Positions 1,385 to 34,471 of a stretch of 64,000 bases of DNA are shown here, piece by piece. The notes under the pieces were generated by a model. It worked only from the letters and a program-made list of their open reading frames with translations, did no database searches and was not told where the DNA came from. Source of the stretch: an uncultured Chloroflexia bacterium (lineage in GTDB: Bacteria; Chloroflexota; Limnocylindria; Limnocylindrales; CSP1-4); assembly GCA_963734535.1 (NCBI GenBank), contig CAVTHS010000007.1, positions 192,001 through 256,000 on the forward strand, in the 5' to 3' direction. Position 1 is the first letter of the stretch. Every line of letters begins with the position of its first letter. The translations under genes and the position numbers were made by a program.

Positions 1385-1421
1385 CAGTGGAACAGGCGGG
1401 AGCCCGACAGGAGCGTTGACG

Positions 1422-1925
1422 ATGCAGGCCTTGCCCAAGGTGTCTCACGAGCACCACGACCGACTGTGGCATTACGTCGACCAGCTCAACACCCTGGCCG
1501 ACTGCATGAACACGGATTGCCTGGACACGGCCAGGCTCAGCGAGCGCCTGCCTGAGCTGCGGGACTTGCAGCTCGGGCTGACGAGCATGCTGATCCCCCA
1601 CATGGAAGCAGTCGAAGCGGCCGTCTACCCCACGCTCGAGCGTCTCTTGGCGGATCGCCACACGACGGCCCCAATGGCGCTCGAGCACGGCGAGATCCGT
1701 CGACTTGTCGGGGCGATCGGCGAGTTCGCCGAGCACCCGCAGGCCCACGCGGACCGGGGCGCCGTCCTGGCGCTGCGCCGTGTCCTGCTGCGGCTCCACG
1801 CTCTCCTCAGCGCGCACCTCTCGGAGGAGGAGCTCTACATCCCGATCCTCGAGGACAGGCTGACGCCACCGGAGGAGGCGGCGCTCGCGAGGGCCCTCGA
1901 CCACGTGGCAGCGGAGCGGTTGTAG
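1422..1925 (+). CDS. Hemerythrin (HHE) domain protein
   Basis: EHH, HxxxxE (HMEAVE), EH and HLSEEE iron-ligand pattern; AGGAG RBS. Confidence 0.85.
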   Translation: MQALPKVSHEHHDRLWHYVDQLNTLADCMNTDCLDTARLSERLPELRDLQLGLTSMLIPHMEAVEAAVYPTLERLLADRHTTAPMALEHGEIRRLVGAIGEFAEHPQAHADRGAVLALRRVLLRLHALLSAHLSEEELYIPILEDRLTPPEEAALARALDHVAAERL

Positions 1926-4997: not shown

Positions 4998-5681
4998 ATG
5001 CCACGCATCCTGGTCGTCGACGACGAGCCTCACATCGTGGACGTGATCCGGGCCTACCTGGTCCGCGAGGGCCACGTGGTCGATGTCGCCCGCGACGGCG
5101 ATGCCGCCCTGGCCAGCGCACGAGCGAACAAGCCGGACCTGCTGATCCTCGACGTCATGCTTCCCCGGCGTTCGGGCTTCGAGGTGCTCCGCGAGCTCCG
5201 GGCGACCGGCTCCGCTGCGGCCGTGATCATGCTCACCGCCCGCGACGACGTCATCGATCGAGTGGCCGGGCTCGAGCTCGGGGCCGACGACTACGTGACG
5301 AAGCCATTCGAGCCGCGCGAGCTCGTCGCGCGCGTTGGCGCGGTGCTGCGGCGCGTCGGGCGGCCGAACCCCGGCACGACGGCCGAGGCGTTCTTCGACC
5401 TTCGCGTCGATTCCGGTGCACGGGAGGTGACGCGTGATGGATCGGGGCTCGATCTCACGCGGACCGAGTTCGACCTGCTCGAGGCGCTCGTGGCCGACCG
5501 CGGCGTGGTGATGACGCGGGAGCATCTCGGTTCGGCAGTGTTCGGAGAAGCCTTCGACGCCTCCGACCGGGCGGTCGACAGCCACGTGAAGAACCTGCGC
5601 CGCAAGCTGGGACCCCGGCCGGACGGTGGCCAGTACGTGGAGACGCTCCGCGGGGTCGGATACCGGGCCGGCCGGCCGTGA
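4998..5681 (+). CDS. OmpR/PhoB-family response regulator
   Basis: 'ILVVDDE', 'LDVMLP', 'GADDYVTKPF', 'VETLRGVGY'. Confidence 0.95.
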   Translation: MPRILVVDDEPHIVDVIRAYLVREGHVVDVARDGDAALASARANKPDLLILDVMLPRRSGFEVLRELRATGSAAAVIMLTARDDVIDRVAGLELGADDYVTKPFEPRELVARVGAVLRRVGRPNPGTTAEAFFDLRVDSGAREVTRDGSGLDLTRTEFDLLEALVADRGVVMTREHLGSAVFGEAFDASDRAVDSHVKNLRRKLGPRPDGGQYVETLRGVGYRAGRP

Positions 5682-6782
5682 GCCTGCGCCTGCGGCTCAC
5701 TGCGGCCTTCGCCCTCGTCGCGTTGCTCACTGCCGGTGCCGTGGCGCTCGCCACGCCCTCGATCGTGGGGCGCGGCTTCGCCCTCGTGGAGGGGCCGGAC
5801 GCGACCGGGGGTCCACAGGGTGGCGGGCGCGGTGCCGGCCCCATGGCCGGCGCGCACGCCCAGCAGGTCCAGCAGGACACGGTGATCGCGCTGATCGGCG
5901 TGGCGCTCGTCGCCGCGGCAGGCGCGTCGCTGCTGGGCTTCGCCCTCGCGCGGAGCATCGCTCGACCCCTCGGGACGCTCGAAGGAGCCGCTGCGGCGAT
6001 CGCCCGTGGCGATCTCGCCCGACGATCGGGACTCGCCGAACGGACCGATGAGGTCGGCTCGCTCGGCCGATCCTTCGATACCCTCGCCGCGAGTCTCGAG
6101 GGTGCCGACGAGGCTCGCCGGCGGTTCCTCCAGGACGTCGTCCACGAGCTCAAGACGCCGCTGGCGGTGATCGACGCGACCACCAGCGCAGTGCTCGATG
6201 GGGTCTACGATCACGACGACCGCCACCTCGAGACGATTCGCGGCCAGGCCCGGCAGCTCTCGAGGATCGTCGACGACCTGCGCACGATCGGCCTCGCGGA
6301 ATCGGGCGGCCTGACGCTCCGAATGGCGCCGACGCCGCTCGCCCCGATCCTTTCCGGCGATCGCGTCCGCGTTCGGCGCGGCCGCCGCCGCGGTGGGTGG
6401 TTCGATCGCGGTGAGCGTCCCGGGTGACCTCACGGTCCGGGCGGACGCGGACCGCCTGCGCCAGGCGATCGCGGCCCTGGTCGACAACGCGATCCGGCAC
6501 GCTCCCGCGTCGCCGATCGCGGTCGAGGCGACGCCGCGCGCGGGCGGCACCCGGATCGAGGTCCGGGACGGGGGACCGGGGATCCCGGCTGCTGACCTCC
6601 CGCACGTCTTCGAGCGCTTCTACCAGGCCGACGAATCGCGCGACAGGACCGCCGGGACGAGTGGCCTCGGGCTGGCAATCGTCAAGGCCATCGCCGATGC
6701 CCACGGAGCTTCGGTGGGGGCCGCCAATGTCACGACCGGTGGGGCCCGTTTCTGGATCGACCTTCCCGGTTCGCCGGGCTGA
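5678..6782 (+). CDS. HAMP sensor histidine kinase (split by +1 frameshift near 6354)
   Basis: TM-TM-HAMP and 'VHELKTPL' in 5678-6427; N/G boxes 'LVDNAIRH', 'DGGPGI', 'GLGLAIVK' in the next frame (6393-6782). Confidence 0.88.
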
Positions 6783-6808: not shown

Positions 6809-7195
6809 CTAGTGGACCAGGAAGATGCTGCCGAGGAGAATCACGAGTACCCCGAGCGTGATCGCGACGTAGAGGCCGTCGGCCTCGAGCCAGAAGCCGA
6901 CGACGCTCGTCGCGACGCGCAGGACCGGCGTGGCGAGCAGGACGACCAGCCCGGCCTGGGCGAACGCGACGGGGCGCAGCGCCAGCAGCCCGGAGACCAG
7001 GTACGAGAAGTCGGTCGGGGCCGCGGCCGTGGGCGGTGCCCCGAGGAGCGAGCCGTTCCAGCCAACCAGGAGTGACATGGCAAAGCCCACGGTCGTGAGC
7101 GTGGCGGCCGTGACCACGCCGGTGCGCAGGACCGCGCTCACGACGGCGCGAAACTGGTCGGGAGTCAGGCGCTCTCGCCGGGCGTCCCCGCTCAC
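6809..7195 (-). CDS. DUF1634 membrane protein
   Basis: 'GLVVLLATPVLRVA' motif; usual partner of TauE; GTG overlaps the TauE stop. Confidence 0.85.
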   Translation of the reverse strand: MSGDARRERLTPDQFRAVVSAVLRTGVVTAATLTTVGFAMSLLVGWNGSLLGAPPTAAAPTDFSYLVSGLLALRPVAFAQAGLVVLLATPVLRVATSVVGFWLEADGLYVAITLGVLVILLGSIFLVH

Positions 7196-8034
7196 GCGCC
7201 CACCCCGAACCCGCGCAGCAGCGTCTGGATCCCGATCACCACGAGCACGGGGAGGAAGATCCACCGGACATGCCGGTTCGCCAGTCGCGGCAGGAGCCGC
7301 GCACCGAGCATCGCGCCGGCCAGCACCCCGAGCGCGACCGGGGCGACCAGGGTCGGATCCACGTCGCCGCGCCCCAGGTAGATCCCGGCCGACGCGGCCG
7401 CCGTGACGCCGATCATGAAGTTGCTGGTCGCCGAGGAGACCTTCATCGGCAGGCGCATCGCGCCGTCCATCGCGACGACCTTCAGGGCGCCCGAGCCGAT
7501 GCCGAGGAGCCCGGACACGAGGCCGGCGCCCCACATGAGGGCGAATCCCAGGGGCACGCGCCGCGCGGCGTAGGAGACCTCGCGGCCGAGCCGGGCGTCC
7601 GGGTAGCTCGACGCGAGGCGGAGACGGGCGGCCAGCCCGCTCGGCTCGACCTCCGGCGGCATCTCCTCGCCGAGGCGCAGAACCTGCATGAGGGCAGAGC
7701 CAAGCAGGACGAGGCCCAGGAGGATGTAGAGGAAGGCTGGAGCGACGATTGCCGCGAGGAGCGCACCGACCACCGCCCCGGTCGTGGTCGCCAGCTCCAG
7801 GAACATCCCGATCCGCATGTCGGTCATGCGATCGCGCACGTAGGCGGCGGCCGCCCCGGAGCTCGTGGCGATGACGCTGACGATGCTCGCCCCGATCGCG
7901 AGGCGAATGTCGATTCCGAAGAGCAGCGTGAGTGTGGGCACGATCAGGATCCCGCCGCCGACACCGGCGAGCGCTCCGACCAGGCCGGCCAGGATGCTGA
8001 TCGCGAAGATGGCGCCGTCGGCTCCCAGGGTCAC
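7192..8034 (-). CDS. TauE/SafE-family sulfite exporter
   Basis: 'GVGGGILIVP', 'SGLLGIGSG', 'SATSNFMIGVTAAAS'. Confidence 0.9.
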   Translation of the reverse strand: MTLGADGAIFAISILAGLVGALAGVGGGILIVPTLTLLFGIDIRLAIGASIVSVIATSSGAAAAYVRDRMTDMRIGMFLELATTTGAVVGALLAAIVAPAFLYILLGLVLLGSALMQVLRLGEEMPPEVEPSGLAARLRLASSYPDARLGREVSYAARRVPLGFALMWGAGLVSGLLGIGSGALKVVAMDGAMRLPMKVSSATSNFMIGVTAAASAGIYLGRGDVDPTLVAPVALGVLAGAMLGARLLPRLANRHVRWIFLPVLVVIGIQTLLRGFGVGA

Positions 8035-8885
8035 GTGCCCGCCCCCTCGGGCGCGGGCGGGTCGAGCCCGACGGGCGGTCGACCTCGGTGGCGGAGGACC
8101 AGGACACCCAGCGCACCCGCCACCACCACCGCCGAGATGAGCATGGCCGTCGGGATCCCAAAGAAGGTCCAGTTGTCGGCCTTGAGCGTCTCGACGGCGA
8201 AGCGGACGGAGCCGTACCAGATGAAGAAGACGAGGAGCAGGTCGCCGGTCCGGAGCCGGCCGGCGAAGCGCCGGGCGATCCAGATCAGGACGATCGCCCC
8301 GATGAGCCCGGACAGCGACTCGTAGAGGAACATCGGGTGGAAGTGCTGCCCGAGGGTTGCCAACGGGTCCGAGCCCGGCGGGCACTCGTAGCCCTGGGTC
8401 CGGTACTGGCACTGGATGGCGATTCCCCACGGCAGGTTCGTCGGCGAGCCGTAGAGCTCCTGGTTGAAGAAGTTCCCCCAGCGCGCGATGGCCTGCATCA
8501 CGAAGAGCCCGGGTGCGACCGCGTCCGCCCAGGCCAGGAACGGCTGGCGCTTCCAGCGCGCGTAGCCGTAGGCGACCGCAACGCCGGCGATGATCCCGCC
8601 GTAGACCCCGAGCCCCGAGTACGGTGGCAGGACGATCCGGAGAAGGTCGTCCCTGTAGAGCTGCCACTGGTCGATGACGTGGTAGAGCCGGCCACCGATG
8701 AGGGCCGCGATCGCGACGACGATCATCCCGTTCGGGAGCAGCCCGACGTCCAGCCCTCGCCAACGGGCCTCGCGGCTGATCACGAGGTAGACGGCCGCGA
8801 GCCCGACCGCGTAGGCGATCCCGTACCAGTGAACGGCCAGCGGCCCGATCGAGAAGGCGATCGGGGACGGCGTGATGTCGATCAC
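8031..8885 (-). CDS. lgt: Prolipoprotein diacylglyceryl transferase
   Basis: 'HWYGIAY', 'GGRLYHV', 'RWGNFFNQELYG', 'HPMFLYES'. Confidence 0.95.
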   Translation of the reverse strand: MIDITPSPIAFSIGPLAVHWYGIAYAVGLAAVYLVISREARWRGLDVGLLPNGMIVVAIAALIGGRLYHVIDQWQLYRDDLLRIVLPPYSGLGVYGGIIAGVAVAYGYARWKRQPFLAWADAVAPGLFVMQAIARWGNFFNQELYGSPTNLPWGIAIQCQYRTQGYECPPGSDPLATLGQHFHPMFLYESLSGLIGAIVLIWIARRFAGRLRTGDLLLVFFIWYGSVRFAVETLKADNWTFFGIPTAMLISAVVVAGALGVLVLRHRGRPPVGLDPPAPEGAGT

Positions 8886-9073
8886 GGGTGGAATGGCAGG
8901 CGGAGCCGGCGTGCCTCGGTGGCTGCGGTCAGGGAAGGGCTCCGGGCGGGAAGGTCATGGGCCCTGTCGGTCCTCGTCGGTGGCCACGATCATAACCGAC
9001 GAGGGCGTTGGAGAACCCTGACCGGGCCAACGGTCCGGACGGCCCGCCTTCTCGTGACTAGTGGCCCGGCATG

Positions 9074-9145
9074 TATATAGGCTGTCCGCATATATTCAGG
9101 CTACACAGATATGCCGTTACAGCGGCTATCTACCCCGCGCAGATA
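9074..9145. promoter_or_regulatory. AT-rich array of four imperfect TATnn-N9-nnATA palindromes (putative ArsR operators)
   Basis: Units at 9074, 9093, 9110 and 9127, e.g. TATCT-N9-AGATA; lies in the divergent lgt/arsR spacer. Confidence 0.5.
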
Positions 9146-9198
9146 TGCATCGAGAGCACTCCCCGGATCTGCTCGAACCAGGAGGCCCACGCGGCACG

Positions 9199-9579
9199 AT
9201 GGAACGCCAGAGCGCAACGCATGACATCGACGAGCTCCAGGCTTCGATGCTGCGGTCGTTGGCCAGTGCCCACCGCCTTCGGATCCTGCACCTGATCGGC
9301 GCCCAGCCGTGCGAGGTCAACGAGATCGCGCGTGAGCTGGGCCTGAACCAGGCAGCGGCATCGCAGCACCTGGCTGCCATGCGGTCCGTCGGCCTCGTGG
9401 AAGCCATCCGTGACGGGCGGACCGTCCGATATCGCCTCGCCGATCCGCAGATCCTCGCGGCCTGCGAGCTGATGCGCGCGGTCCTCGTGCGCCGGCTCTC
9501 GAGGCTGGGCGACCTGGCCGCGGCGGCCCACGAACCAGCCATCCACATCCTCACAGCCACCGAGGTACCCCACCCGTGA
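9199..9579 (+). CDS. ArsR/SmtB-family repressor
   Basis: 'RLRILHLI', 'ASQHLAAMR..GLV', 'YRLAD'; two Cys (QPCEV, AACEL). Confidence 0.92.
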   Translation: MERQSATHDIDELQASMLRSLASAHRLRILHLIGAQPCEVNEIARELGLNQAAASQHLAAMRSVGLVEAIRDGRTVRYRLADPQILAACELMRAVLVRRLSRLGDLAAAAHEPAIHILTATEVPHP

Positions 9580-9983
9580 GCGATTCGCTGTCACTCGTCC
9601 TCTTCTCCGGCACGGATGACAAGCTCATGGCGGCGGCCACGCTCGCTGCCGGCGCTGCCGCGATGGGGGAGACGGTCAACGTGCTCCTGATGTTCTGGGC
9701 GCTCGACGCGTTCCGAACGGACCGCGTCTCGACCAAGCACGGCCTGGCCTACGACGCGGCACGCCCGCGACCGACCGAGCCGGTCGAGAAGGTCGGCGCA
9801 TTGCCCTGGCTGGAGACGTTCCGCCAGGCCAAGGAGATCGGCGAGATGAACGTCCGGGCCTGCTCCGGCTCGCTCGACACGCTGGGCCTGGACGTGACGG
9901 CGCTGGACCCGATCGTCGACAGCGCCGGCGGGATCGCGTCGTTCCTCATGGCGTCCGAAGGCAGCCAGATCCTCTTCATCTGA
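9576..9983 (+). CDS. DsrE2-like sulfur relay protein
   Basis: 'SLVLFSGTDDKL', 'FWAL', conserved 'RACSGSLD'. Confidence 0.85.
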   Translation: MSDSLSLVLFSGTDDKLMAAATLAAGAAAMGETVNVLLMFWALDAFRTDRVSTKHGLAYDAARPRPTEPVEKVGALPWLETFRQAKEIGEMNVRACSGSLDTLGLDVTALDPIVDSAGGIASFLMASEGSQILFI

Positions 9984-10047
9984 TCGCCGCGGGCGACGAA
10001 CCGCCACCGGCGGACGGATCGCCCCGCGCGACGACAAGGAGCAGCAC

Positions 10048-10431
10048 ATGGCGGACACACAGCAGGCGGACACCCAGAAGCTGGTGTTCATGGTCCTGCA
10101 CGGCCCGGACCATCCCGAGCACGCGACGATCCCGTTCGTGATGGGCTGTGCGGCCCTGGCCTCCGATGTGGAGGTTGTCCTGGGCTTCCAGGCCGAGGGC
10201 GTCGAGCTGGTGCACGCGGGCGTTGCGGACGGCATCCACGCCGCCGGGTTCCCGCCTCTCGCGAAGCTGATGCACGACTACCGGGAGCTCGGTGGGTCAA
10301 TGCTGGTCTGCGGACCGTGCATCAACAGCCGCGGGATCACCGCCGCGGACCTCATCGAGGGCGCCGAGATCGTCGCCGCCGGTCGCTTCGTCGCCGAGAT
10401 CACGTCGGCCACCAACAGCCTCGTCTACTAG
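10048..10431 (+). CDS. dsrE: DsrE-family sulfur relay protein
   Basis: 'ATIPFVMG', 'FQAEGV', 'LVCGPC'; AAGGAG RBS. Confidence 0.88.
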   Translation: MADTQQADTQKLVFMVLHGPDHPEHATIPFVMGCAALASDVEVVLGFQAEGVELVHAGVADGIHAAGFPPLAKLMHDYRELGGSMLVCGPCINSRGITAADLIEGAEIVAAGRFVAEITSATNSLVY

Positions 10432-10444
10432 GGAGTACGGAACC

Positions 10445-10711
10445 ATGTCTGCCATCGCCACCGAGACCGAGCTCGAAGCCATCACCGCCGACAAGATCGT
10501 CGACGCCCGCGGCGCCGCCTGTCCGGGACCGCTCCTCGAGGCCAAGAAGGGCATCGGCACGGTGCCCGTCGGCGCCGTCATCGAGATCTGGTCCAGCGAC
10601 CCGGTCACCAAGAGCGACATCGGGGCGTGGTCCGGGAAGGTCGGCCACGGCTTCCTCGGCGTGCTCGTCGCCGACGGGTACGAGCGGGTCTTCGTGCGTC
10701 GCCAGAAGTAG
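10445..10711 (+). CDS. tusA: TusA/SirA-family sulfur carrier
   Basis: 'DARGAACPGPLLEAKK' (CPxP), 'SSDP...DI..W'. Confidence 0.93.
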   Translation: MSAIATETELEAITADKIVDARGAACPGPLLEAKKGIGTVPVGAVIEIWSSDPVTKSDIGAWSGKVGHGFLGVLVADGYERVFVRRQK

Positions 10712-10723
10712 CCAGCCAAGGAC

Positions 10724-10755
10724 GGCCCGGCGGGCGCAAGCGCATCCGCCGGGCT
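10724..10755 (+). terminator. Intra-operonic stem-loop between tusA and mvhD
   Basis: GCCCGGCGGG pairs with TCCGCCGGGC; no U-tract. Confidence 0.5.
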
Positions 10756-10781
10756 GATCGGAGCCAGGAGCGACCGTCCCA

Positions 10782-11226
10782 ATGACCGCGTCCGCCGCCG
10801 GAGGAGCCCTGCTGGAGGCACCGGCCTTCGTTCCACGGATCCTCGTCTTCTCGACGAACAACATCTCGGACCCGGGCATCGACCTGGCCGGCAGCTCGCA
10901 CATGCACTACACGCCGGGCGTGCATGGTCATGCCGATGCCCTGCACCAGCGGCATCAAGCCCGCCTGGATCGCCCATGCGATCGCGACGGGCTTCGACGG
11001 CGTCTTCGTGGCGTCGGACGGCGACGAATGCGCCTACCTGCCCGACTGCGCTGAGCGCGCCTCGCGAATCATGGCGGAAGCGCAGGCGCTCCTCAAGGCG
11101 GCCGGCCAGTCGCCGCAGCGGCTGAAGATGGCGGCAATCTGCTCGGTCTGCGCCGAGCCGTTCACCCGGCAGGTGACGCAGTTCGCCCAGGCGCTCGCCG
11201 CCCTCGGGCCCTCGGGGGTGCGCTGA
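10782..11226 (+). CDS. mvhD: MvhD/FlpD-like Fe-S subunit (split by +1 frameshift near 10923)
   Basis: 'PRILVF...DLAGSSHMHY' joins 'MPCTSGIKP...GFDGVFV...PQRL' in the next frame. Confidence 0.8.
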
Positions 11227-11229
11227 GCC

Positions 11230-13950
11230 ATGGACTATGACGTTCTCGTCGTCGGCAGCGGCATCGGGGGCATGGAATCCGCCCTGAAGCTCGGCGACAT
11301 GGGGTTCAAGGTTCTCGTCGTGGAACGCGAAGCGAGCGTGGGCGGGAAGATGATCCTGCTCAGCAAGGTGTTCCCCACGCTCGACTGCGCCAGCTGCATC
11401 TCGACGCCGAAGATGGCGGCCACGATCCACCACCCGAACATCACGACGTACACGTACAGCGAGATCGACGGGATCGAGCCCCACGGCGACGGTCGCTTCC
11501 GGGCCCGCATCACGCGCAAGGCGCGCTTCGTGGACGAGTCGGCCTGCACCGGCTGCCAGAAGTGCGAGATGGCCTGCACGGTTGCCGTGCCGGACCAGTT
11601 CAACGCCGACCTGGTGGCGCGCCGCGCCGCCTACATCGCGTTCCCCCAGGCCGTCCCGAAGAAGGCGGTCATCGACCGCGCCGGCAGCTCGCCCTGCTCG
11701 TATGCATGCCCCGCCGGGATCCAGGCGCACGGCTACGTCTCCCTCGTCCGCAGCGGGGAGTACGAGAAGGCGTACCGGCTGGTGCTCGAGGCGACCCCCC
11801 TGGTCGGGACCCTCGGTCGCGCCTGCTATGCGCCCTGCGAGACCGAGTGCACCCGCGGCTCCCTCGAGGGAACGCTCCCGATCCGCCTCCTGAAGCGGTT
11901 CGCCTCCGACCGCCACGACGAGACGGCGGACGGCCCCGGCATCGAGGTCGCCGAACCGAACGGCCGGAAGGTCGCGGTCGTGGGCTCCGGCCCCGCGGGC
12001 CTCACCGCGGCCTGGCAGCTTGCTCGCCGCGGCTACGCCGTGAAGATCTTCGAGGCCGCCCCGGAGCCGGGCGGGTTCCTTCGCCTCGCAATCCCGTCCT
12101 ACCGCCTCCCGATCGAGGTGGTCGAGCGCGACATCGACAACGTCCGGGCCATCGGCGTGGAGATCGCCACGAACAGCCCGGTCCGGGACGTGGCCGCCCT
12201 CAAGGAGGCCGGCTTCGACGCGGTCCTCCTGGCGACGGGCACCCCGCGCTCGACCGGCATCGGGGTTCCCGGCGAGGATCGCCTCGGCGTCTTCGGCGGC
12301 ACCGACTTCCTGCGCAAGGTGAAGCTCGGCCAGCCGATGGACCTTACCGGCAAGCGGGTGGTCGTGATCGGCGGCGGCAATGTCGCGATGGACACCGCCC
12401 GGACGGCTCGCCGCCTTGGTGCCGCGTCCGTGACCGTGGCGTACCGGCGCGGCCGCGCGGAGATGCCGGCCCACCACGTCGAGGCCGACGACGCCGAGCG
12501 GGAGGGCGTGGCCTTCAGCTTCCAGGTCGCCCCGGCCGAGGTCCTCGGCGACGAGCACGGCGCGGTGAGCGGCCTGCGCTGCATCCGCATGACGCTCGGC
12601 GCCCCGGACGCGTCCGGCCGGCGCCGCCCCGAGCCGGTCCCGGGCAGCGAGTTCGTGCTTCCCTGCGAGATCGTCGTCGGGGCCATCGGCATGACCGCCG
12701 ACACCGGCGCGTTCGCGAACCACATCGCGACGAAGGCGAATGGCACGCTCGAGGCCGACGCGACGTCCCGCCAGACCGGCCTGCCGTACGTCTTCGCCGC
12801 CGGCGACGTGGTCAACGGGGCGACCGACATCACGCGCGCCGTCGGTGAGGGTCGCCGCGCCGCCCACATGATCGATCGCTGGTTGACCGGCGGGACGCTC
12901 GACGGGTTCGACGACCGGCTGCCGGTGGTCGACAAGGCGCAGGTCGTCGCCCGTCAGAAGGCCTACTCGCTCCGGGCCGCGCTGCCCAACGGGACGACCC
13001 TGGTTTCGAACCCGGCCGACTTCTCCGAGGTGGAGGCCCCGCTGACGGAGGCGGAGGCGCGCGGGGCCGCGGGCCGCTGTCTCGACTGCGCGGTGTGCAG
13101 CGAGTGCGGGGAGTGCGTCGATGCCTGCCCGGTCGACGGGTGCATCGATCTCCATGCCCGCGACGAGAAGCTCGAGGTCGAGGTCGGCGCCGTGGTGGTC
13201 GCCACGGGGTTCAAGCTCTTCGCGGCCGACCTGAAGCCCCAGTACGGCTTCGGGACATACAAGAACGTCATCACGGGCATGCAGATGGACCGCCTGCTGG
13301 CGCCGACGCGGCCCTTCAACACGATCCTGCGCCCCGGCGACGGCAAGGTCCCCGAGCGGATCGCCTACGTGCTGTGCACGGGCTCCCGCGACGAGACGGT
13401 GAACAACCCGCTCTGCTCGCGGTTCTGCTGCATGTACTCGATCAAGCAGAACCAGCTGCTGATGGGCGCGCTCCCGCTCGCGGACGTGACGGTCCACTAC
13501 ATGGACATCCGGGCCGCGGGCAAGCGCTACAACGAGTTCTACGAGCAGGCGAAGTCCATGGGCGCCACCTACGTCAAGGGGAGGGTGGCGAAGATCACCG
13601 AGAAGGACGACGGCAACCTGGTCCTGCGTTACGAGGACATCGAGAATGGCGGGAAGCTCGTCGAGGCGGAGTACGACCTGGTCGTGCTCGCGGTCGGCGT
13701 GCAGCCCAACAGCGACGCGGAGGGCCTCTTCCCGGCCGGCGACCTTGCCGTGGACGAGTTCCGCTATGTCGCGGAACCGAACGAGGACCTCGATCCGGGT
13801 GCGACCAGCATCCCCGGGGTCTACGTGGCCGGCGCCGCCTCCGGTGCCAAGGACATCGCCGACTCGATCCTCCACGCGGGATCCACGGCGGCCCAGGTGG
13901 CGGCGCATCTCGAGCGCGCCCGCCTCGAGAAGGCAGGGGTGCCGGCATGA
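11230..13950 (+). CDS. hdrA: HdrA-like flavoprotein with inserted GltD/NfnB-type NAD(P)H module (HdrL-like)
   Basis: HdrA motifs 'KVFPTLDCASC', 'CTGSRD', 'CSRFCCMYSIK', 'KDIADSI'; insert with 'CSYACP', 'LGRACYAPCETEC', 'GSGPAG', 'GGGNVAMD', 'YRR'. Confidence 0.9.
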   Translation: MDYDVLVVGSGIGGMESALKLGDMGFKVLVVEREASVGGKMILLSKVFPTLDCASCISTPKMAATIHHPNITTYTYSEIDGIEPHGDGRFRARITRKARFVDESACTGCQKCEMACTVAVPDQFNADLVARRAAYIAFPQAVPKKAVIDRAGSSPCSYACPAGIQAHGYVSLVRSGEYEKAYRLVLEATPLVGTLGRACYAPCETECTRGSLEGTLPIRLLKRFASDRHDETADGPGIEVAEPNGRKVAVVGSGPAGLTAAWQLARRGYAVKIFEAAPEPGGFLRLAIPSYRLPIEVVERDIDNVRAIGVEIATNSPVRDVAALKEAGFDAVLLATGTPRSTGIGVPGEDRLGVFGGTDFLRKVKLGQPMDLTGKRVVVIGGGNVAMDTARTARRLGAASVTVAYRRGRAEMPAHHVEADDAEREGVAFSFQVAPAEVLGDEHGAVSGLRCIRMTLGAPDASGRRRPEPVPGSEFVLPCEIVVGAIGMTADTGAFANHIATKANGTLEADATSRQTGLPYVFAAGDVVNGATDITRAVGEGRRAAHMIDRWLTGGTLDGFDDRLPVVDKAQVVARQKAYSLRAALPNGTTLVSNPADFSEVEAPLTEAEARGAAGRCLDCAVCSECGECVDACPVDGCIDLHARDEKLEVEVGAVVVATGFKLFAADLKPQYGFGTYKNVITGMQMDRLLAPTRPFNTILRPGDGKVPERIAYVLCTGSRDETVNNPLCSRFCCMYSIKQNQLLMGALPLADVTVHYMDIRAAGKRYNEFYEQAKSMGATYVKGRVAKITEKDDGNLVLRYEDIENGGKLVEAEYDLVVLAVGVQPNSDAEGLFPAGDLAVDEFRYVAEPNEDLDPGATSIPGVYVAGAASGAKDIADSILHAGSTAAQVAAHLERARLEKAGVPA

Positions 13951-15747
13951 GCCAGCCGGAGCTCGATGGCGCGGTCCCCGGCGCAGCCCCCGTCCCCGGT
14001 GAGGCTGTCCCCGGGGCGCGTCGGATCGGCGTCTACGTCTGCCATTGCGGCGGAAACATCTCCGACTACGTTGACGTCGCGAAGGTCGTCGAGTCCGTCC
14101 AGGGAGATGGCGACGTCGCCATCGCGCGGACGGCCATGTTCGCCTGCTCCGATGCCTCCCAGCAGGACATGATCGACGACATCCAGCAGAACAACCTCGA
14201 CGGCCTGGTCGTGGCCTCGTGCTCGCCCAAGCTCCACACGTTCACGTTCCGGGCGGTCGCCACGCGCGCCGGGCTCAACCCCTACGAGTACTCGCAGGTC
14301 AACATCCGCGAGCAGTGCTCCTGGATCCACAGCGACGACCGACCGGGCGCGACCACGAAGGCCATCGGTCTCGTGGAGGCGGGGATCGCCCGAACGCGCC
14401 TGACCGAGCCCCTGGTGCCGATCGTGGTGGAGACCACGCCGAAGACCCTCGTCATCGGTGGCGGGATCGCGGGGCTCCGGGCGGCCGTCGGGCTCGCCGA
14501 CATCGGTCTCGAGGTCGTGGTGGTCGAACGCGAGCTGACACTGGGCGGCTGGGTGGGCCGCTTCGGCGAGATGTACCCGCACGGCAAGGACGGTCGCACC
14601 CTCATTGCCGGCCTCGTAGCCGAGGTCAAGAAGCGGCCGGCCATCACCGTGCTGACGGGTGCCGACGTCGTCGGGAAATCGGGGAGCTTCGGTAACTACG
14701 ACGTCGAGGTGCGCGTCGGCGGCCCCGGCGCGGGAAGCATCTCCGTTCGCGTCGGCTCGATCATCGTCGCCACGGGCTTCGACTCCTACCAGCCCGACGC
14801 CGGCGAGTTCGGCTACGGCATCGACGGCGTCCTGACGCTGCCCGAGTTCACGGACCTGCTCGATCGCTCGACCGGCCCGCTCGTCCACAACGGGAAGACG
14901 GTCCGCAGCGTCGTCTACGTCTACTGCGTGGGCAGTCGCCAGCCGTCCGACGGTGAGGGTGCCAACGAGTACTGCTCGCGCTTCTGCTGCACGGCCGCGG
15001 TCCACGCGTCCGTCCGGGCCGCCGGCCTCGACGCGACCGCCCGCCAGTACCACCTCTACCGCGACATCCGCACGTACGGCAAGTACGAGACCATCTACAC
15101 GGAGTCGCGCGAGCTGGGCTCGGTCTACCTGAAGTTCCCCGACGACGAGCCCCCCGCCGTGGCCCTGGGCGAGGATGGCCGGCTGGTCGTCACGGCTCGC
15201 GACCTCCTCACCGGGGGCGAGGAGCTGGCGATCCCGGCAGACCTCGTGGTCCTCGTGACGGGCATGGTCCCCCGGAAGAACGACGATCTGGTGGGCGTTC
15301 TCAAGCTCCCGCTGGGATCGGACGGCTTCTTCAACGAGATCCATCCCAAGCTGCGGCCGGTCGAGACCGTCGTGGGCGGGGTCCTGATCGCCGGTGCGTG
15401 CCAGGGACCGAAGTCCTCGTCCGAGAGCGTCGCCTCCGGCCTGGCAGCGGTCACCCAGAGCGCGGCGATCCTGCGCAAGGGCTTCGCAGAGCTCGATCCG
15501 CTCGTCGCGACCGTGACACACGGATGCCTGCACGGCCTGCGGGAAGTGCCTCGAGGCGTGTCCGTACGGCGCGATCGGGATGACCGGCCTGGATGGCCGC
15601 GAGGTCGCCGCGATCAGCCAGACGGGCTGCAAGGGCTGCGGCGGATGCGTCCCGGTCTGCCCGGAGGATGCGATCGACCTGCGCGGCTACACGGACGCCC
15701 AGATCCGGGACCAGATCGACCGCATGCTGGAGGTTCCGGTCGCATGA
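13947..15747 (+). CDS. hdrA: Second HdrA-like subunit with C-terminal 2[4Fe-4S] domain (+1 frameshift near 15517)
   Basis: 'IGVYVCHCGGNI', 'ASCSPKLH', 'NIREQCSW', 'HPKLRPVET'; shifted frame gives 'CTACGKCLEACP' and 'CKGCGGCVPVCP', stop at 15747. Confidence 0.9.
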
Positions 15748-15986
15748 GCACGCAGAGCAGGGAGGTCCGCGAGGTCGTCCGCGACGAGCCCGTCATGCGG
15801 GCACGCATCCTGGCGGCCGTTGCGGATGGGCCGCGAACCGTGCCCGAGATCGCGCGTGCGATCGGGAGCCCGACCCACGAGGTTGTGTTCTGGGTGATGG
15901 GGATGCGCCGCTACGGCTGGCTGCGCGAGGTCAAGGCACCCGCCGAAGACGGCTATTTCCGATACCAGGCGGAGGAGCGAGCATGA
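15744..15986 (+). CDS. Small winged-helix-like protein inside the Hdr operon
   Basis: 'ILAAVADGPRTVPEIARAIG...MRRYG...GYFRY'; ATGA overlaps with both neighbours. Confidence 0.75.
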   Translation: MSTQSREVREVVRDEPVMRARILAAVADGPRTVPEIARAIGSPTHEVVFWVMGMRRYGWLREVKAPAEDGYFRYQAEERA

Positions 15987-17173
15987 CCGCGCAGGTTGAC
16001 CTGGGGCTCTACGGCGCGCTCCAGAAGTTCGGCGCGGCCGATGTCTCGGCCTGCTTCTCCTGCGGGACGTGCACGGCGACGTGTCCGCTGGTCACCGACG
16101 ACGCCACGTTCCCGCGGCGGATGATCCGCTACGCCCAGGTGGGCCTGCGCGACAAGCTGTTGTCGAGCAAGGAGCTCTGGACGTGCTACGCCTGCGGCGA
16201 GTGCTCCGAGACCTGCCCCACGCAGGCCGAGCCCAGCGAGTTCATGGCCGCCGCCCGGCGCTACGCCATCGGCAGCTACGACCGGACCGGCCTGGCACGG
16301 ACGATGTACACGCGGCCGGTGCTCGGGACCGTCATCGCGGTCTTCCTCGCGGCATTCTTCGCACTATTCATGGCATCGGGCAACGGGGTCCAGGCCACCG
16401 GATCGCTCGATCTCTTCGCGTTCGTGCCAGAGGACCTGATCCATACCACCGGCATCATCGTGATGGCGATCGTCGGGCTGGCCGGTCTCGCCGGCATCGT
16501 CACGATGGCACGCCAGGTCGGCCGTGCCGAAGGCATCGGCTGGCGCACGGTCGCCGGCAGCCGGGCGGCAATCGGACGCTCCCTGGGTGCGGCCTGGGAG
16601 GCGATCGGGATCGAGTCGCTGGGCCAGCGCCGATACCGCGCCGACTGCGACGCGGACAAGGCGGTGGTCCCCCTCTACCGCCGCCGCTGGCTCCTGCACG
16701 CGGTCACGATGTGGGGCTTCCTGGGGCTCTTTGCCGCGACGATCCTCGACTACGGCCTCGCGCTGGCGGGGATCAAGGCGACCGGGACGCCGGTCCCGAT
16801 CTGGTACCCCGTGCGCCTGCTGGGCACGATCGCCGGGCTGATGCTCGTGTACGGCACCAGCGTGCTCATCATCGACCGGGTCCGGCGCGTCAGCAGGTCG
16901 GTCGCCCACTCGAGCCCGGCCGACTGGACGCTGCTCGCACTCCTCTGGATCACGGGCGTGACGGGGTTCGCCCTTGAGCTGGCGCTCTATCTCCCGGCGG
17001 CGCCCGCGTGGGGCTACTGGGTCTTCCTCTTCCACGTGGCGGTGGCAATGGAGCTCGTGCTGCTCGCCCCGTTCATGAAGCTCGCGCACGTGCTCTACCG
17101 GCCCGTGGCGCTCTTCTTCTTCGCCCTCGCTCGGACGCCCGAGCACCTCGATCGTCAAGGAGGCACGAGATGA
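15983..17173 (+). CDS. QmoC-like membrane protein (HdrC-type dicluster plus heme-b-type TM domain)
   Basis: 'CFSCGTCTATCP', 'CYACGECSETCP', then about 6 TM helices with 'H...WGF', 'H......L..PFMKLAH..YRP'. Confidence 0.85.
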   Translation: MTAQVDLGLYGALQKFGAADVSACFSCGTCTATCPLVTDDATFPRRMIRYAQVGLRDKLLSSKELWTCYACGECSETCPTQAEPSEFMAAARRYAIGSYDRTGLARTMYTRPVLGTVIAVFLAAFFALFMASGNGVQATGSLDLFAFVPEDLIHTTGIIVMAIVGLAGLAGIVTMARQVGRAEGIGWRTVAGSRAAIGRSLGAAWEAIGIESLGQRRYRADCDADKAVVPLYRRRWLLHAVTMWGFLGLFAATILDYGLALAGIKATGTPVPIWYPVRLLGTIAGLMLVYGTSVLIIDRVRRVSRSVAHSSPADWTLLALLWITGVTGFALELALYLPAAPAWGYWVFLFHVAVAMELVLLAPFMKLAHVLYRPVALFFFALARTPEHLDRQGGTR

Positions 17174-17664
17174 CCGCCAGCCTGGAAACCATGGCCCACG
17201 TGCACAGCGAGCACCTGCTGCACGAGATCGACCGCCTGCCCGAGACCGGCGACATGGTGGCGACCGCGTCGCCGGCGGACCTCCGTGCGCGCCTCGACGA
17301 GACGCACGCCTTCCTGGCGGAGGTCCTGATCCCGCACATGGAGGCCGCCGAGCGCGCCCTTTACCCGGAGCTCGAGCGGATGTTCCAGAACGTCCACTCG
17401 ATGGCGCCCCTGCGCCGCGAGCACGGCGTGATCCGCCAGTCGACCGCCGAGCTGGCGAAGGTGCGCGAGCATCTCGGCGAGAGCCGGATCTCGATCGGCC
17501 AGTCGATCGCCCTGCGGCGGGTGATCTTCCGCCTCTACGCGCTCCTCAAGGTGCATCTCGCCGAGGAGCAGGTCTACCTCGACATCCTCGACCGGCGCGA
17601 GGCGCCGGAGATGGCCGAGGCGCTCGCGGCGGCCATGGCGCACCCGGGAAGCCCGCAGGCCTGA
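17170..17664 (+). CDS. Hemerythrin (HHE) domain protein
   Basis: 'LIPHMEAAE', 'EH', 'HLAEEQVY'; paralogue of 1422-1925. Confidence 0.85.
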   Translation: MTASLETMAHVHSEHLLHEIDRLPETGDMVATASPADLRARLDETHAFLAEVLIPHMEAAERALYPELERMFQNVHSMAPLRREHGVIRQSTAELAKVREHLGESRISIGQSIALRRVIFRLYALLKVHLAEEQVYLDILDRREAPEMAEALAAAMAHPGSPQA

Positions 17665-33232: not shown

Positions 33233-34471
33233 GCGAACGGCAGGCAGCCCGGAACCGGCCGGGCGCGGCAGAGCCGATCCTGGCGGGCGTCGCGCAGCGG
33301 ATCGGGCTCGCGGCCGCGGAGCGGATCCGGACCGGCTGCCTGGTCGTCGTGCTTCCCGATGGGTCGCGCCGCGTGTTCGGCAACGCCCAGTCGGCGCGTC
33401 GCGGCGAGATCCGGATCCACGATTCGCGAGCCCTGGTTCGCGCCCTCGTGAACGGCGAGACCGGGCTCGGCGAGGCGTATGTCGACGGGCTCTGGTCGAG
33501 CCCGGACCTCGTCGCCCTCATCGAGCTCGCGGCCCTGAACCGGGCGTCGCTCGCGCTGTCCGCCGGCTGGTGGCGAGCGCCGACCCAGCTCGCCCGGACG
33601 CTGGCCCACCGGGCGCGGCGCAACACGCGGAGGCAGAGCCGTCGCAACATCGCGGCGCATTACGACCTGGGCAACGACTTCTACCGGCTCTTCCTCGACG
33701 AGACGATGACGTACTCGAGTGCGGTCTTCGCCTCGCCCGACCAGCCGCTCGCCGACGCCCAGCGCAACAAGTACCGGCTCATGGCCGAGCGCGCCGGCCT
33801 CGTCCGCGGCATGCACGTGCTGGAGATCGGCACCGGGTGGGGCGGGTTCGCGCTCTACGCCGCGGGCGAGCTCGGTTGCCGCGTGACGACGATCACGATC
33901 TCGCAGGCCCAGGCGGACGCTTGCCCGGGAGCGCGTCCGGGACGCGAGCCTCGACGGGCTCGTCGACGTCCAGCTGCGCGACTACCGCGAGATCGTCGGC
34001 ACCTTCGACGCGATCGTCTCGATCGAGATGCTCGAGGCGGTTGGCGCCGAATACCTCGCCACGTTCTTCGAGGCGTGCGACCGCGCGCTGGCGCCAGGCG
34101 GCAGGCTCAGCCTCCAGTCGATCACGTTCCCGGACGCCGCCTACGAGACCCAGCGCCGGGGCGCCAACTGGATCCAGCAGTACATCTTCCCGGGTGGCCT
34201 GTGCCCATCCCTGGCCGTGATCGAGCGGGCGACGCGGGCTACGAACCTCCGCATCACGCGGGTCGACGACATCGGCCAGCACTACGCGGCCACGCTCCGC
34301 GCGTGGCGCGAACGCTTCCTGGAGCGGGTGGCAGCGGTCCGCGCGCTCGGCTTCGACGGCCGGTTCGTGCGGACGTGGGAGTACTACCTGGCCCTGAGCG
34401 AGGCGGCGTTCGCCACCGGGACGACGCAGGACCTGCAGGTGGTGTTCGAGAAGGGTCGCAGGGTCGCGTAG
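33229..34471 (+). CDS. cfa: Cfa-family fatty-acyl-phospholipid methyltransferase (+1 frameshift near 33920)
   Basis: 'NIAAHYDLGNDFY', 'MTYSSA', 'LEIGTGWGG'; next frame 'EMLEAVG', 'YIFPGG', 'WEYYL'. Confidence 0.9.

Follow-up and report, generated by a model that had tools for sequence, protein, structure and literature searches.

Gene content and organization of the operon

We describe here an operon in a 64-kb stretch of DNA (the window; positions 192001-256000 of contig C7, CAVTHS010000007.1) from an uncultured Chloroflexia bacterium, whose 14-contig, 3.2-Mb assembly (G000) is 89.9% complete with 7.1% contamination; the GC content of the window is ~71%. The operon brings together genes for sulfur-carrier proteins of the TusA, DsrE and DsrE2B-like types with genes for two HdrA paralogues, an MvhD-like iron-sulfur (FeS) subunit and a QmoC-like membrane protein, under an ArsR-family regulator (Table 1). 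We propose, giving the proposal about even chances of being correct, that the products form a persulfide-induced complex that couples NADP(H), menaquinone and TusA-bound sulfur.

A sequence-only reading of this DNA had described a co-oriented and largely translationally coupled operon of ten genes, and all ten are indeed found on the plus strand at the positions given in Table 1, with 4-nt start/stop overlaps at five junctions (among them that of arsR with the DsrE2B-like gene) and gaps of 3, 13, 64 and 70 nt at the remaining ones. The gene names are backed by Pfam or NCBIfam matches above or near threshold, the winged-helix (wHTH) protein excepted; what had been overlooked is that mvhD and hdrA2 each contain a frame break, discussed below. 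Contigs from an environmental RNA library cover the operon in 30/30 bins (204/1638 at 99% identity or more), with DNA carry-over being possible. The nearest named homologues of HdrA1, 80-83% identical, come from metagenome-assembled genomes (MAGs) of Chloroflexota and 'Candidatus Limnocylindrales', as expected if the source is, as seems probable, a Limnocylindria-type member of the Chloroflexota.

Table 1. Genes of the operon and its upstream region, in window coordinates
Feature	Coordinates	Strand	Supporting matches or position
AT-rich candidate ArsR operator/promoter region with ATATGC/GCATAT-type half-sites	9065-9150		upstream of arsR
arsR, ArsR/SmtB-family repressor	9199-9579	+	HTH_5 48.2 bits; NF033788 76.1 bits (cut-off 55)
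DsrE2B-like sulfur transferase (Pfam DrsE_2)	9576-9983	+	PF13686 44.1 bits
dsrE, DsrE-family sulfur transferase, weakly DsrE3A-like	10048-10431	+	PF02635 54.2 bits
tusA, sulfur carrier, CPGP motif	10445-10711	+	PF01206 59.1 bits
mvhD-like, FeS subunit, frame-broken	10782-11226	+	FlpD/MvhD 68.6 bits (C-terminal piece); N-terminal piece 18.2 bits, below cut-off
hdrA1, HdrL / type III HdrA	11230-13950	+	PRK12771 470.8 bits on residues 143-651; HdrA models on 617-901
hdrA2, frame-broken	13947-15747	+	N-terminal piece NF040770 391.9 bits; C-terminal piece (15517-15747) Fer4_7 56.1 bits
Winged-helix (wHTH) protein, 80 aa	15744-15986	+	HTH_20 19.5 bits, sub-threshold match only
qmoC-like	15983-17173	+	NF038018 196.8 bits (cut-off 300); Nitrate_red_gam 26.5 bits
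Hemerythrin-like (HHE) protein, last operon gene	17170-17664	+	PF01814 28.4 bits

Domain architecture of the predicted redox subunits

The MvhD-like protein adopts the fold of its namesake: the model of the orthologue from a same-genus locus (L028; predicted local distance difference test score, pLDDT, 75.5) matches chain 5odc_D with E = 8.9e-12, TM scores of 0.78/0.83 and a root-mean-square deviation of 2.0 Å. Its Cys residues are another matter, as only two of the five that define the canonical set (CNWC, MCSG and GCHxGDC, aligned in 5/5 canonical sequences) are kept, namely C54 and C83; the CNWC pair and the GC Cys have been lost, and C89 and a CSVC pair (C120, C123) have been gained. All five Cys that are present are invariant in 17 sequences, and in the L028 model the kept and the new ones follow strands 2, 3 and 4 and hence share one edge of the sheet. 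Judging from this model, the new Cys would re-ligate the cluster or, alternatively, form a reactive Cys pair.

HdrA1 extends from the FAD motif to the point at which HdrA would continue into its C-terminal ferredoxin domain, and lacks both the N-terminal and the C-terminal ferredoxin domains. It contains a complete GltD/NfnB-like module inserted in the HdrA core, which is the arrangement of HdrL and type III HdrA; among solved structures, GltD-type chains (9bov_A, 9n5u_A and 4ylf_B) match residues 152-629 and HdrA (5odc_A) matches residues 623-900. The second Rossmann motif, GxGxxA (G381, G383, A386), is invariant in 19 sequences and is of the NADP(H) type by the rule given in PMC12054007. HdrA2, for its part, has both terminal ferredoxin domains and lacks the inserted ferredoxin domain alone: in the alignment of the intact L028 protein to 5odc_A (E = 1.3e-111), 4-234 and 314-649 are covered and 240-310 is skipped. 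Between them, the two paralogues cover every HdrA domain once, an arrangement that speaks for a heterodimer, and other lineages encode HdrA1 and HdrA2 as fused proteins of ~1,500 aa.

The QmoC-like protein aligns with the NF038018 model from end to end (2-360 of 360), yet does not reach the equivalog score. It consists of an HdrC-like 2x[4Fe-4S] domain and a membrane domain of about six hydrophobic segments; the match to HdrC chains (8rvv and 5odc) is confined to residues 13-96, and a search of the PDB retrieved no solved structure for the membrane part. Seven sequences share eight invariant Cys and four invariant His (H154, H239, H351 and H369), the His being located in or beside hydrophobic segments, a pattern from which the membrane domain can be predicted to be probably dihaem and a candidate quinone site.

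The wHTH protein, whose gene is translationally coupled to both neighbours, is 78-80% identical in 6/6 same-genus loci and 58% identical in locus L043 from a Thermoleophilia MAG. Distant Hdr clusters encode MvhD proteins with a fused C-terminal winged helix (FlpD + MarR_2/HTH_5; L045:9339-10136 and L069:5851-6615). In pairwise comparisons, the wHTH protein shares 39% identity over 51 aa with the fused domain of the Syntrophobacteraceae locus L045 (E = 3e-7) and has no match to the L069 fusion. It may be a structural subunit rather than a regulator. Hemerythrin closes the operon in 6/6 same-genus loci (49-52% identity), and in 6/6 of these loci (L028-L033) the opposite strand carries a second hemerythrin gene immediately beyond the operon.

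Sulfur-carrier proteins and the regulator

The three predicted sulfur carriers each retain an invariant Cys. In TusA, this is C24 of the C-P-G-P motif, invariant in 16 sequences; in the DsrE2B-like protein it is the Cys of ACSGS, invariant in 7/7 copies, and in DsrE that of the GPC motif, invariant in 8/8 copies. The closest solved chain to the DsrE2B-like protein is 2qs7_A (E = 9.6e-20, full length); that to DsrE is 3mc3_A, at E = 1.3e-4 only, so that its placement in the DsrE3A subgroup is tentative. The two structures have been named DsrE2B (2QS7) and DsrE3A (3MC3), respectively (PMC11094781).

The two Cys reported in the sequence-only reading of ArsR, one in PCEVNE and one in ILAAC, turn out to be invariant in 8/8 Limnocylindria-type copies; the divergent ArsR of L043 retains the second Cys only. 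They may be equivalent to the sensing Cys of SqrR and BigR, one before the recognition helix and one in the C-terminal helix. ArsR is not a member of the BigR equivalog family by score (34.9 bits versus a cut-off of 155). The sHdr systems are under an ArsR-type regulator (sHdrR), and the present operon is likewise headed by ArsR.

Upstream of arsR, GCATATA/ACATATATAC palindromic motifs occur at the same position in 6/6 same-genus loci (7/7 including the window), and the AT-rich half-sites at 9065-9150 would make a candidate ArsR operator or promoter. GCATATA itself occurs once in the window, at 9088-9094, a count that is not significant, given that 23/100 shuffles yield at least one match. A consensus scan of 8800-9300 detected no sigma-70-like promoter or terminator. 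Between lgt and arsR there is also a perfect inverted repeat with 10-nt arms at 8972-8981 and 8995-9004, spaced 13 nt apart, which has no aligned counterpart in the upstream regions of relatives.

Conservation, synteny and phylogeny

We searched 41 genomes, comprising the present one, 24 of the same genus and 16 of the sister family. A full-length HdrA1 orthologue is encoded in the present genome and in 7/24 others of the genus, and in 0/16 sister-family genomes, where only GltD-like paralogues were detected. The set of ten genes is complete and its order unchanged in 5 of the 7 same-genus loci; dsrE is missing from L030, and L009 is a 3.1-kb contig that spans only tusA-mvhD-hdrA1. A survey of the phylum, based on an even sample of 401 species genomes including the present one, identified an HdrL-type match (E <= 1e-150) in 51/401, of which 18 are at least 59% identical and the rest 38-46%; in all 11 further loci retrieved from this set, the order tusA-mvhD-hdrA1-hdrA2 is preserved. 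The tusA-mvhD-hdrA1 core extends to a Thermoleophilia MAG (L043, 65% identity) and a Bacteroidales MAG (L044, 51%). Altogether, in 20/20 related loci from three phyla (7 same-genus, 11 other Chloroflexota, 1 Thermoleophilia and 1 Bacteroidales), tusA lies directly upstream of an mvhD that adjoins hdrA1.

A lack of conserved dsrE/tusA linkage, named in the sequence-only reading as something that would refute it, is not what we observe: tusA is strictly linked. However, dsrE and dsrE2 are variable. The 11 further loci include 2 with dsrE2 only, 4 with both genes, 2 with dsrE only, 2 with neither in a short flank, and 1 that is incomplete; over all related loci, dsrE is absent from L030, L123 and L124, dsrE2 from L129 and L133, and neither was found in the short flanks of L131 and L132. 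In L043, furthermore, the position of QmoC is taken by a 99-aa HdrC-like open reading frame (ORF) followed by a CCG-domain ORF (L043:14687-15939). These two ORFs overlap in different frames, and the assembly may be broken there as well.

Beyond this set, seven distant HdrL loci of 40-45% identity (Syntrophobacteraceae, Thermotogae, Saprospiraceae, an archaeon, Dehalococcoidales and two Syntrophaceae-like) contain no tusA or dsrE at E <= 1e-4; those with scanned neighbours (L046, L047 and L069) have genes for HdrB (CCG) or NiFe hydrogenase. In a maximum-likelihood tree of 24 HdrL rows, a single branch with 100/100 support divides the 17 TusA-linked rows (16 of the 20 loci plus the window) from the 7 without tusA; the frame-broken L031-L033 and the partial L009, L049, L050 and L084 were omitted, and long branches are flagged. 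The HdrL of the window groups with those of other genera and another family (83% identity to L123) rather than with its own genus (79%), and the Thermoleophilia protein nests among those of Chloroflexota. The tree grouping, together with the patchy distribution in the genus, suggests horizontal transfer of the whole operon.

These patterns bear on the possibility that the complex transfers electrons and nothing else, i.e., that it is an NADPH:menaquinone oxidoreductase, perhaps bifurcating to ferredoxin, with TusA and DsrE being co-regulated for persulfide buffering or for supplying sulfur to the roughly one dozen FeS clusters, rather than serving as substrates. Every redox cofactor for a path from NADPH to quinone is predicted, Pfam and NCBIfam detect no sulfur-reactive catalytic domain in the operon, the DsrE content varies among loci, and the distant HdrL relatives function with hydrogenase or HdrBC in their neighbourhoods and without TusA. 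However, the placement of tusA before mvhD in every related locus of three phyla is stricter than usual co-regulation, the TusA-linked HdrL proteins form one group that shares the rewired MvhD, and a plain NADPH:quinone enzyme needs neither two HdrA paralogues nor an MvhD. We accordingly consider this explanation improbable.

Frame breaks in mvhD and hdrA2

As sequenced, the mvhD-like gene and hdrA2 are not intact ORFs, with one frame change in each, at ~10924 and ~15519-15522, respectively. In mvhD, the FlpD profile is matched over positions 1-28 in one frame and 30-123 in the next, and an extra A at 10924 is the sole indel relative to L009, a sister-genome contig with 95.2% identity over the 3106 nt aligned. 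The C-terminal 2x[4Fe-4S] domain of HdrA2 is encoded in the next frame from ~15517; relatives encode the corresponding stretch, ...VAVVDxDACTACG..., in a single frame, which implies one extra base near 15519-15522. The stop codon of the shifted frame overlaps the start of the wHTH gene by 4 nt, as ATGA, indicating that this frame is the true C-terminus of hdrA2.

We consider it quite likely that both breaks are assembly errors, because the genes of relatives are in one frame and because the assembly shows splits of this kind in no fewer than three further genes. These are a histidine kinase (window 5678-6782, plus strand; HAMP and HisKA in 5678-6424, HATPase_c in 6393-6782), a CMAS-family cyclopropane-fatty-acid synthase (window 33250-34471, plus strand; profile positions 3-101 in 33250-34029 and 136-271 in 34028-34471), and an acetyl-CoA synthetase (C6:200996-203051, i.e., L038:10996-13051, with AMP-binding and AMP-binding_C in two overlapping ORFs). 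Programmed frameshifting at the two sites was considered and rejected, given that relatives encode each gene in one frame and that other genes of the assembly are broken too.

The breaks could instead be real one-base insertions in an operon that is decaying in this genome, so that the complex is not made here, irrespective of what the operon does elsewhere. Both breaks are private to this genome, with relatives reading mvhD and hdrA2 through; contigs of sequencing run X1 retain the extra base at 10924 (0 of a depth of 14.1 lack it); and the patchy occurrence of the operon in the genus shows that loss occurs. Nevertheless, X1, which accounts for 84% of words, is probably the source sample of the assembly and hence not independent, and related populations in runs X2 and X4 and in the RNA run X13 lack the extra base. 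Moreover, apart from the unrelated genes split in a similar manner, several breaks are also found in hdrA1 and hdrA2 of the few-contig relatives L031-L033, and, beyond the single bases, both genes are fully conserved, and hdrA2, read in its shifted frame, still shows the ATGA coupling to the next gene. Decay therefore appears unlikely.

Absent partners and other sulfur-related loci in the genome

The sequence-only reading had noted that the window contains no genes for HdrB, HdrD, AprAB, DsrAB, hydrogenase or LbpA, and we confirmed this, any matches being confined to other contigs. For aprA, no match to TIGR02061 above the cut-off was obtained in the present genome (best 24.7 bits) or in 5/5 operon-bearing relatives (best 35.3 bits), and dsrA was not found in any of the six; the relatives searched are 81-95% complete. 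The outcome named in that reading as refuting it, with the proteins nesting within canonical QmoABC and aprAB residing elsewhere in the genome, is not what we found in this 89.9%-complete assembly. NiFe hydrogenases are encoded on C2 and C6, away from the contig of the window, and the sole GcvH-family gene, on C10, is also distant from the operon, so that there is no dedicated LbpA.

No HdrB-type CCG gene is located near the operon, the CCG matches of the genome being on C6 and C8. Considered as a hidden HdrB, these three remote loci were rejected: one is a GlpC-like gene in a glpABC-like cluster, another encodes a large FeS-CCG fusion, and the third belongs to an ars operon, none of them near HdrA or HdrC. 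The last of these (C8:237660-244277, i.e., L039:3660-10277) encodes, in a row, TauE, a SLAC1/TehA-like channel, ArsR, ArsD, a 435-aa CCG-domain protein and ArsA; a CCG protein within an arsenic-resistance cluster is unusual. The description of the operon as having neither HdrB nor AprAB is accordingly valid for this genome; its HdrB part does not extend to the orthologous operon of L043, with its HdrC and CCG-domain proteins.

A second sulfur cluster, next to hypD on C8 (C8:335758-338714, i.e., L041:5758-8714), encodes an SQR/FCSD-like flavoprotein, a TusA-DrsE_2 fusion and a further DrsE_2 protein. Its products may provide the sulfane sulfur used by the operon or draw on the same pool.

The latter cluster is among the observations that would fit a role in sulfur oxidation comparable to sHdr or rDsr-DsrL, in which the sulfane sulfur delivered by DsrE and TusA is oxidized and the electrons pass to menaquinone and NADP+. 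The combination of DsrE2B, a DsrE3A-like protein and TusA is the companion set of sHdr (PMC11094781). Judging by position, the GltD insert would be on the low-potential arm of HdrA and QmoC on its high-potential counterpart, and, if the architecture is of the 5odc type, a donor of ~-200 to -270 mV entering via MvhD could bifurcate to both. The parts that define sHdr are missing, however, with no HdrB-type gene at hand and GcvH encoded on another contig, and the operon encodes no enzyme that adds oxygen to sulfur, such that sulfide could be oxidized to the persulfide level at most. Sulfur oxidation of this type is, in our estimation, decidedly improbable.

Relationships to known systems

Like type I QmoABC, the operon combines two different HdrA-derived flavoproteins with an HdrC-like/membrane cytochrome-b-type subunit, in which haem binding is predicted, and has an MvhD-like module. 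The exchange of QmoC for an HdrC plus a CCG protein between lineages also mirrors that of QmoABC versus QmoAB-HdrBC (PMC10504309). Unlike type I Qmo, the operon has a QmoC below the equivalog cut-off, a GltD-type NADPH module in one HdrA, a separate mvhD gene with a changed Cys set, and tusA and dsrE in the position of aprBA, and aprA is without a match above cut-off in 6/6 genomes.

Type II Qmo proteins, catalogued in 2023 (Neukirchen et al.; Vulcanisaeta moutnovskia, Ammonifex degensii and others), occur with or without Apr and Dsr, are closer to HdrA than to type I QmoAB, and had their function left open (PMC10504309). At the level of this published description, HdrA2 likewise has HdrA models as its best NCBIfam matches. 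Neither a GltD insert nor a linkage to TusA or DsrE is mentioned in the description consulted (PMC10504309), and the supplements of that study may list the family of this operon.

The closest counterparts of HdrA1 are HdrL of Desulfobacterium autotrophicum, described in 2009 as an HdrA core with an inserted NAD(P)H module of the glutamate synthase small subunit type (PMC2702500), and the 'type III HdrA' of methane-metabolizing archaea, described in 2025 (PMC12054007); both have the inserted module and always adjoin an mvhD gene. The operon shares with these the GltD insert and the adjacency of mvhD, which here ends 3 nt before hdrA1 and adjoins it in 20/20 loci. It differs in its partners, those described being dsrABC, formate dehydrogenase or mvhADG-hdrBC (PMC2702500, PMC12054007) in contrast to TusA/DsrE, a second HdrA and QmoC here; in the archaeal GxGxxG motif (PMC12054007) as opposed to GxGxxA; and in the rewired Cys set of MvhD.

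With the sHdr-LbpA system, the operon has in common an HdrA-family flavoprotein encoded together with TusA and DsrE2/DsrE3-type transferases (PMC11094781). It lacks HdrB1/B2 (CCG), the second HdrC and LbpA, and has instead two HdrA paralogues, an NADPH module and a membrane QmoC-like subunit. The MvhAGD-HdrABC and Fdh-MvhD-HdrABC complexes of methanogens (5odc, 7bkb, 8rvu) contain homologous HdrA, MvhD and HdrC-like parts, whereas the operon is devoid of hydrogenase, Fdh and HdrB, splits the HdrA domains between paralogues, and adds NADPH and quinone modules.

A full-text literature search, with subscription journals outside its coverage, retrieved no description of a TusA/DsrE-linked HdrL-HdrA-QmoC operon. 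The parts of the operon are thus already published, and it is their sulfur-carrier-linked combination that looks undescribed. The distinct module linking NAD(P)H, quinone and sulfur that the sequence-only reading had postulated is supported in part, by the GltD module, the QmoC-like protein and the tusA linkage, although HdrL, type III HdrA and type II Qmo were known before.

Proposed function

We infer the contacts between the subunits, the substrate, the direction of flow and the regulation as follows. The operon would encode a membrane-anchored HdrA-type flavin/iron-sulfur complex on the Qmo plan, with an HdrA1-HdrA2 heterodimer as its core, to which HdrA2 would contribute the N- and C-terminal ferredoxin domains. 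The GltD-type insert of HdrA1 would serve as the NADPH port, and the QmoC-like subunit, by means of its HdrC-like clusters and probably dihaem membrane domain, would join the core to menaquinone. The rewired MvhD-like subunit would occupy the arm that holds hydrogenase or formate dehydrogenase in the Hdr complexes of methanogens, and this arm would serve TusA-bound sulfur (persulfide or thiosulfonate), loaded by the DsrE2B-like protein and DsrE. In the direction that we prefer, which is reductive, NADPH would drive the reduction of carrier sulfur with release of sulfide, with the quinone as second partner and maybe through flavin-based bifurcation; in the alternative, opposite direction, a sulfur donor would feed menaquinone and NADP+. 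On textbook potentials, either is feasible: NADPH could reduce a low-potential thiosulfonate or persulfide, quinone being the high-potential acceptor, or sulfur could be the donor for a bifurcation towards quinone and NADP+. The two-Cys ArsR would repress the operon until modified by persulfide, and hemerythrin would shield or repair the numerous FeS clusters of a soil bacterium exposed to oxygen. Bifurcation, sulfane sulfur as the substrate and induction by persulfide were already part of the sequence-only reading, and we, too, infer them.

We favour the three-way coupling because the complex has predicted NADPH and quinone ports together with an MvhD arm that is without its usual partner and is always preceded by tusA. 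Also counted in its favour are the correspondence of the DsrE2B-like/DsrE3A-like/TusA trio to the set known from sHdr clusters (PMC11094781), the complementary domains of the two HdrA paralogues, the invariant GxGxxA motif, the invariable linkage of tusA across the related loci, the grouping of the TusA-linked HdrL proteins, the rewired MvhD, the lack of aprA and dsrA in the six genomes, the two invariant Cys of ArsR with the palindromes upstream, and the coverage of the operon by RNA-library contigs.

Several observations weigh against this proposal. Its main weakness is that no subunit encoded in the operon has a recognized sulfur-reactive catalytic site, and that TusA and DsrE carry no redox cofactor; nor is there a CCG/HdrB, molybdopterin or sirohaem protein near the operon in this genome. 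In L043, HdrC and a CCG protein replace the membrane part, so that a quinone link is not common to all loci, and those with a CCG protein may rely on CCG chemistry as the actual sulfur site. The DsrE content is inconstant (in L030, L123, L124, L129 and L133, as well as in the short-flank loci L131 and L132); mvhD and hdrA2 are frame-broken here, with the X1 contigs keeping the extra base at 10924; the adjacent TauE/SafE gene is not kept beside the operon in the 7 same-genus loci; and ArsR scores far below the BigR equivalog cut-off, leaving its two Cys as the pointer to persulfide sensing.

Going further, one could envisage a new class of flavin-based bifurcating systems in which carrier-bound sulfur replaces H2 or formate at the rewired MvhD arm and is coupled to NADP(H) and menaquinone, conserving energy without Dsr, Apr, Sox or HdrB, and which is widespread in uncultured bacteria of soil, peat and sediment; we regard this extended version as doubtful. 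If the proposed coupling is correct, the abundant Chloroflexota of soil and permafrost, along with the Thermoleophilia and Bacteroidales that bear the module, would have an unrecognized way of handling reduced sulfur, one that is invisible to marker surveys based on dsrAB, aprAB, sox and shdr. It would, moreover, add a new substrate class for HdrA-type, possibly bifurcating, enzymes, and provide a function for proteins resembling 'type II Qmo'. The tusA-mvhD linkage and the rewired Cys of MvhD offer concrete, testable handles.

Neighbouring genes in the window

Genes for DUF1634, TauE/SafE and Lgt lie upstream of the operon in divergent orientation (window 6812-8885, minus strand). They were considered as a part of the system and set aside, because a search of the 7 same-genus loci revealed no homologue next to the operon; the proximity of the sulfite exporter is probably coincidental. 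A hemerythrin paralogue is encoded at window positions 1416-1925, followed by a NifX-like Nitro_FeMo-Co gene at 2081-2488 on the plus strand.

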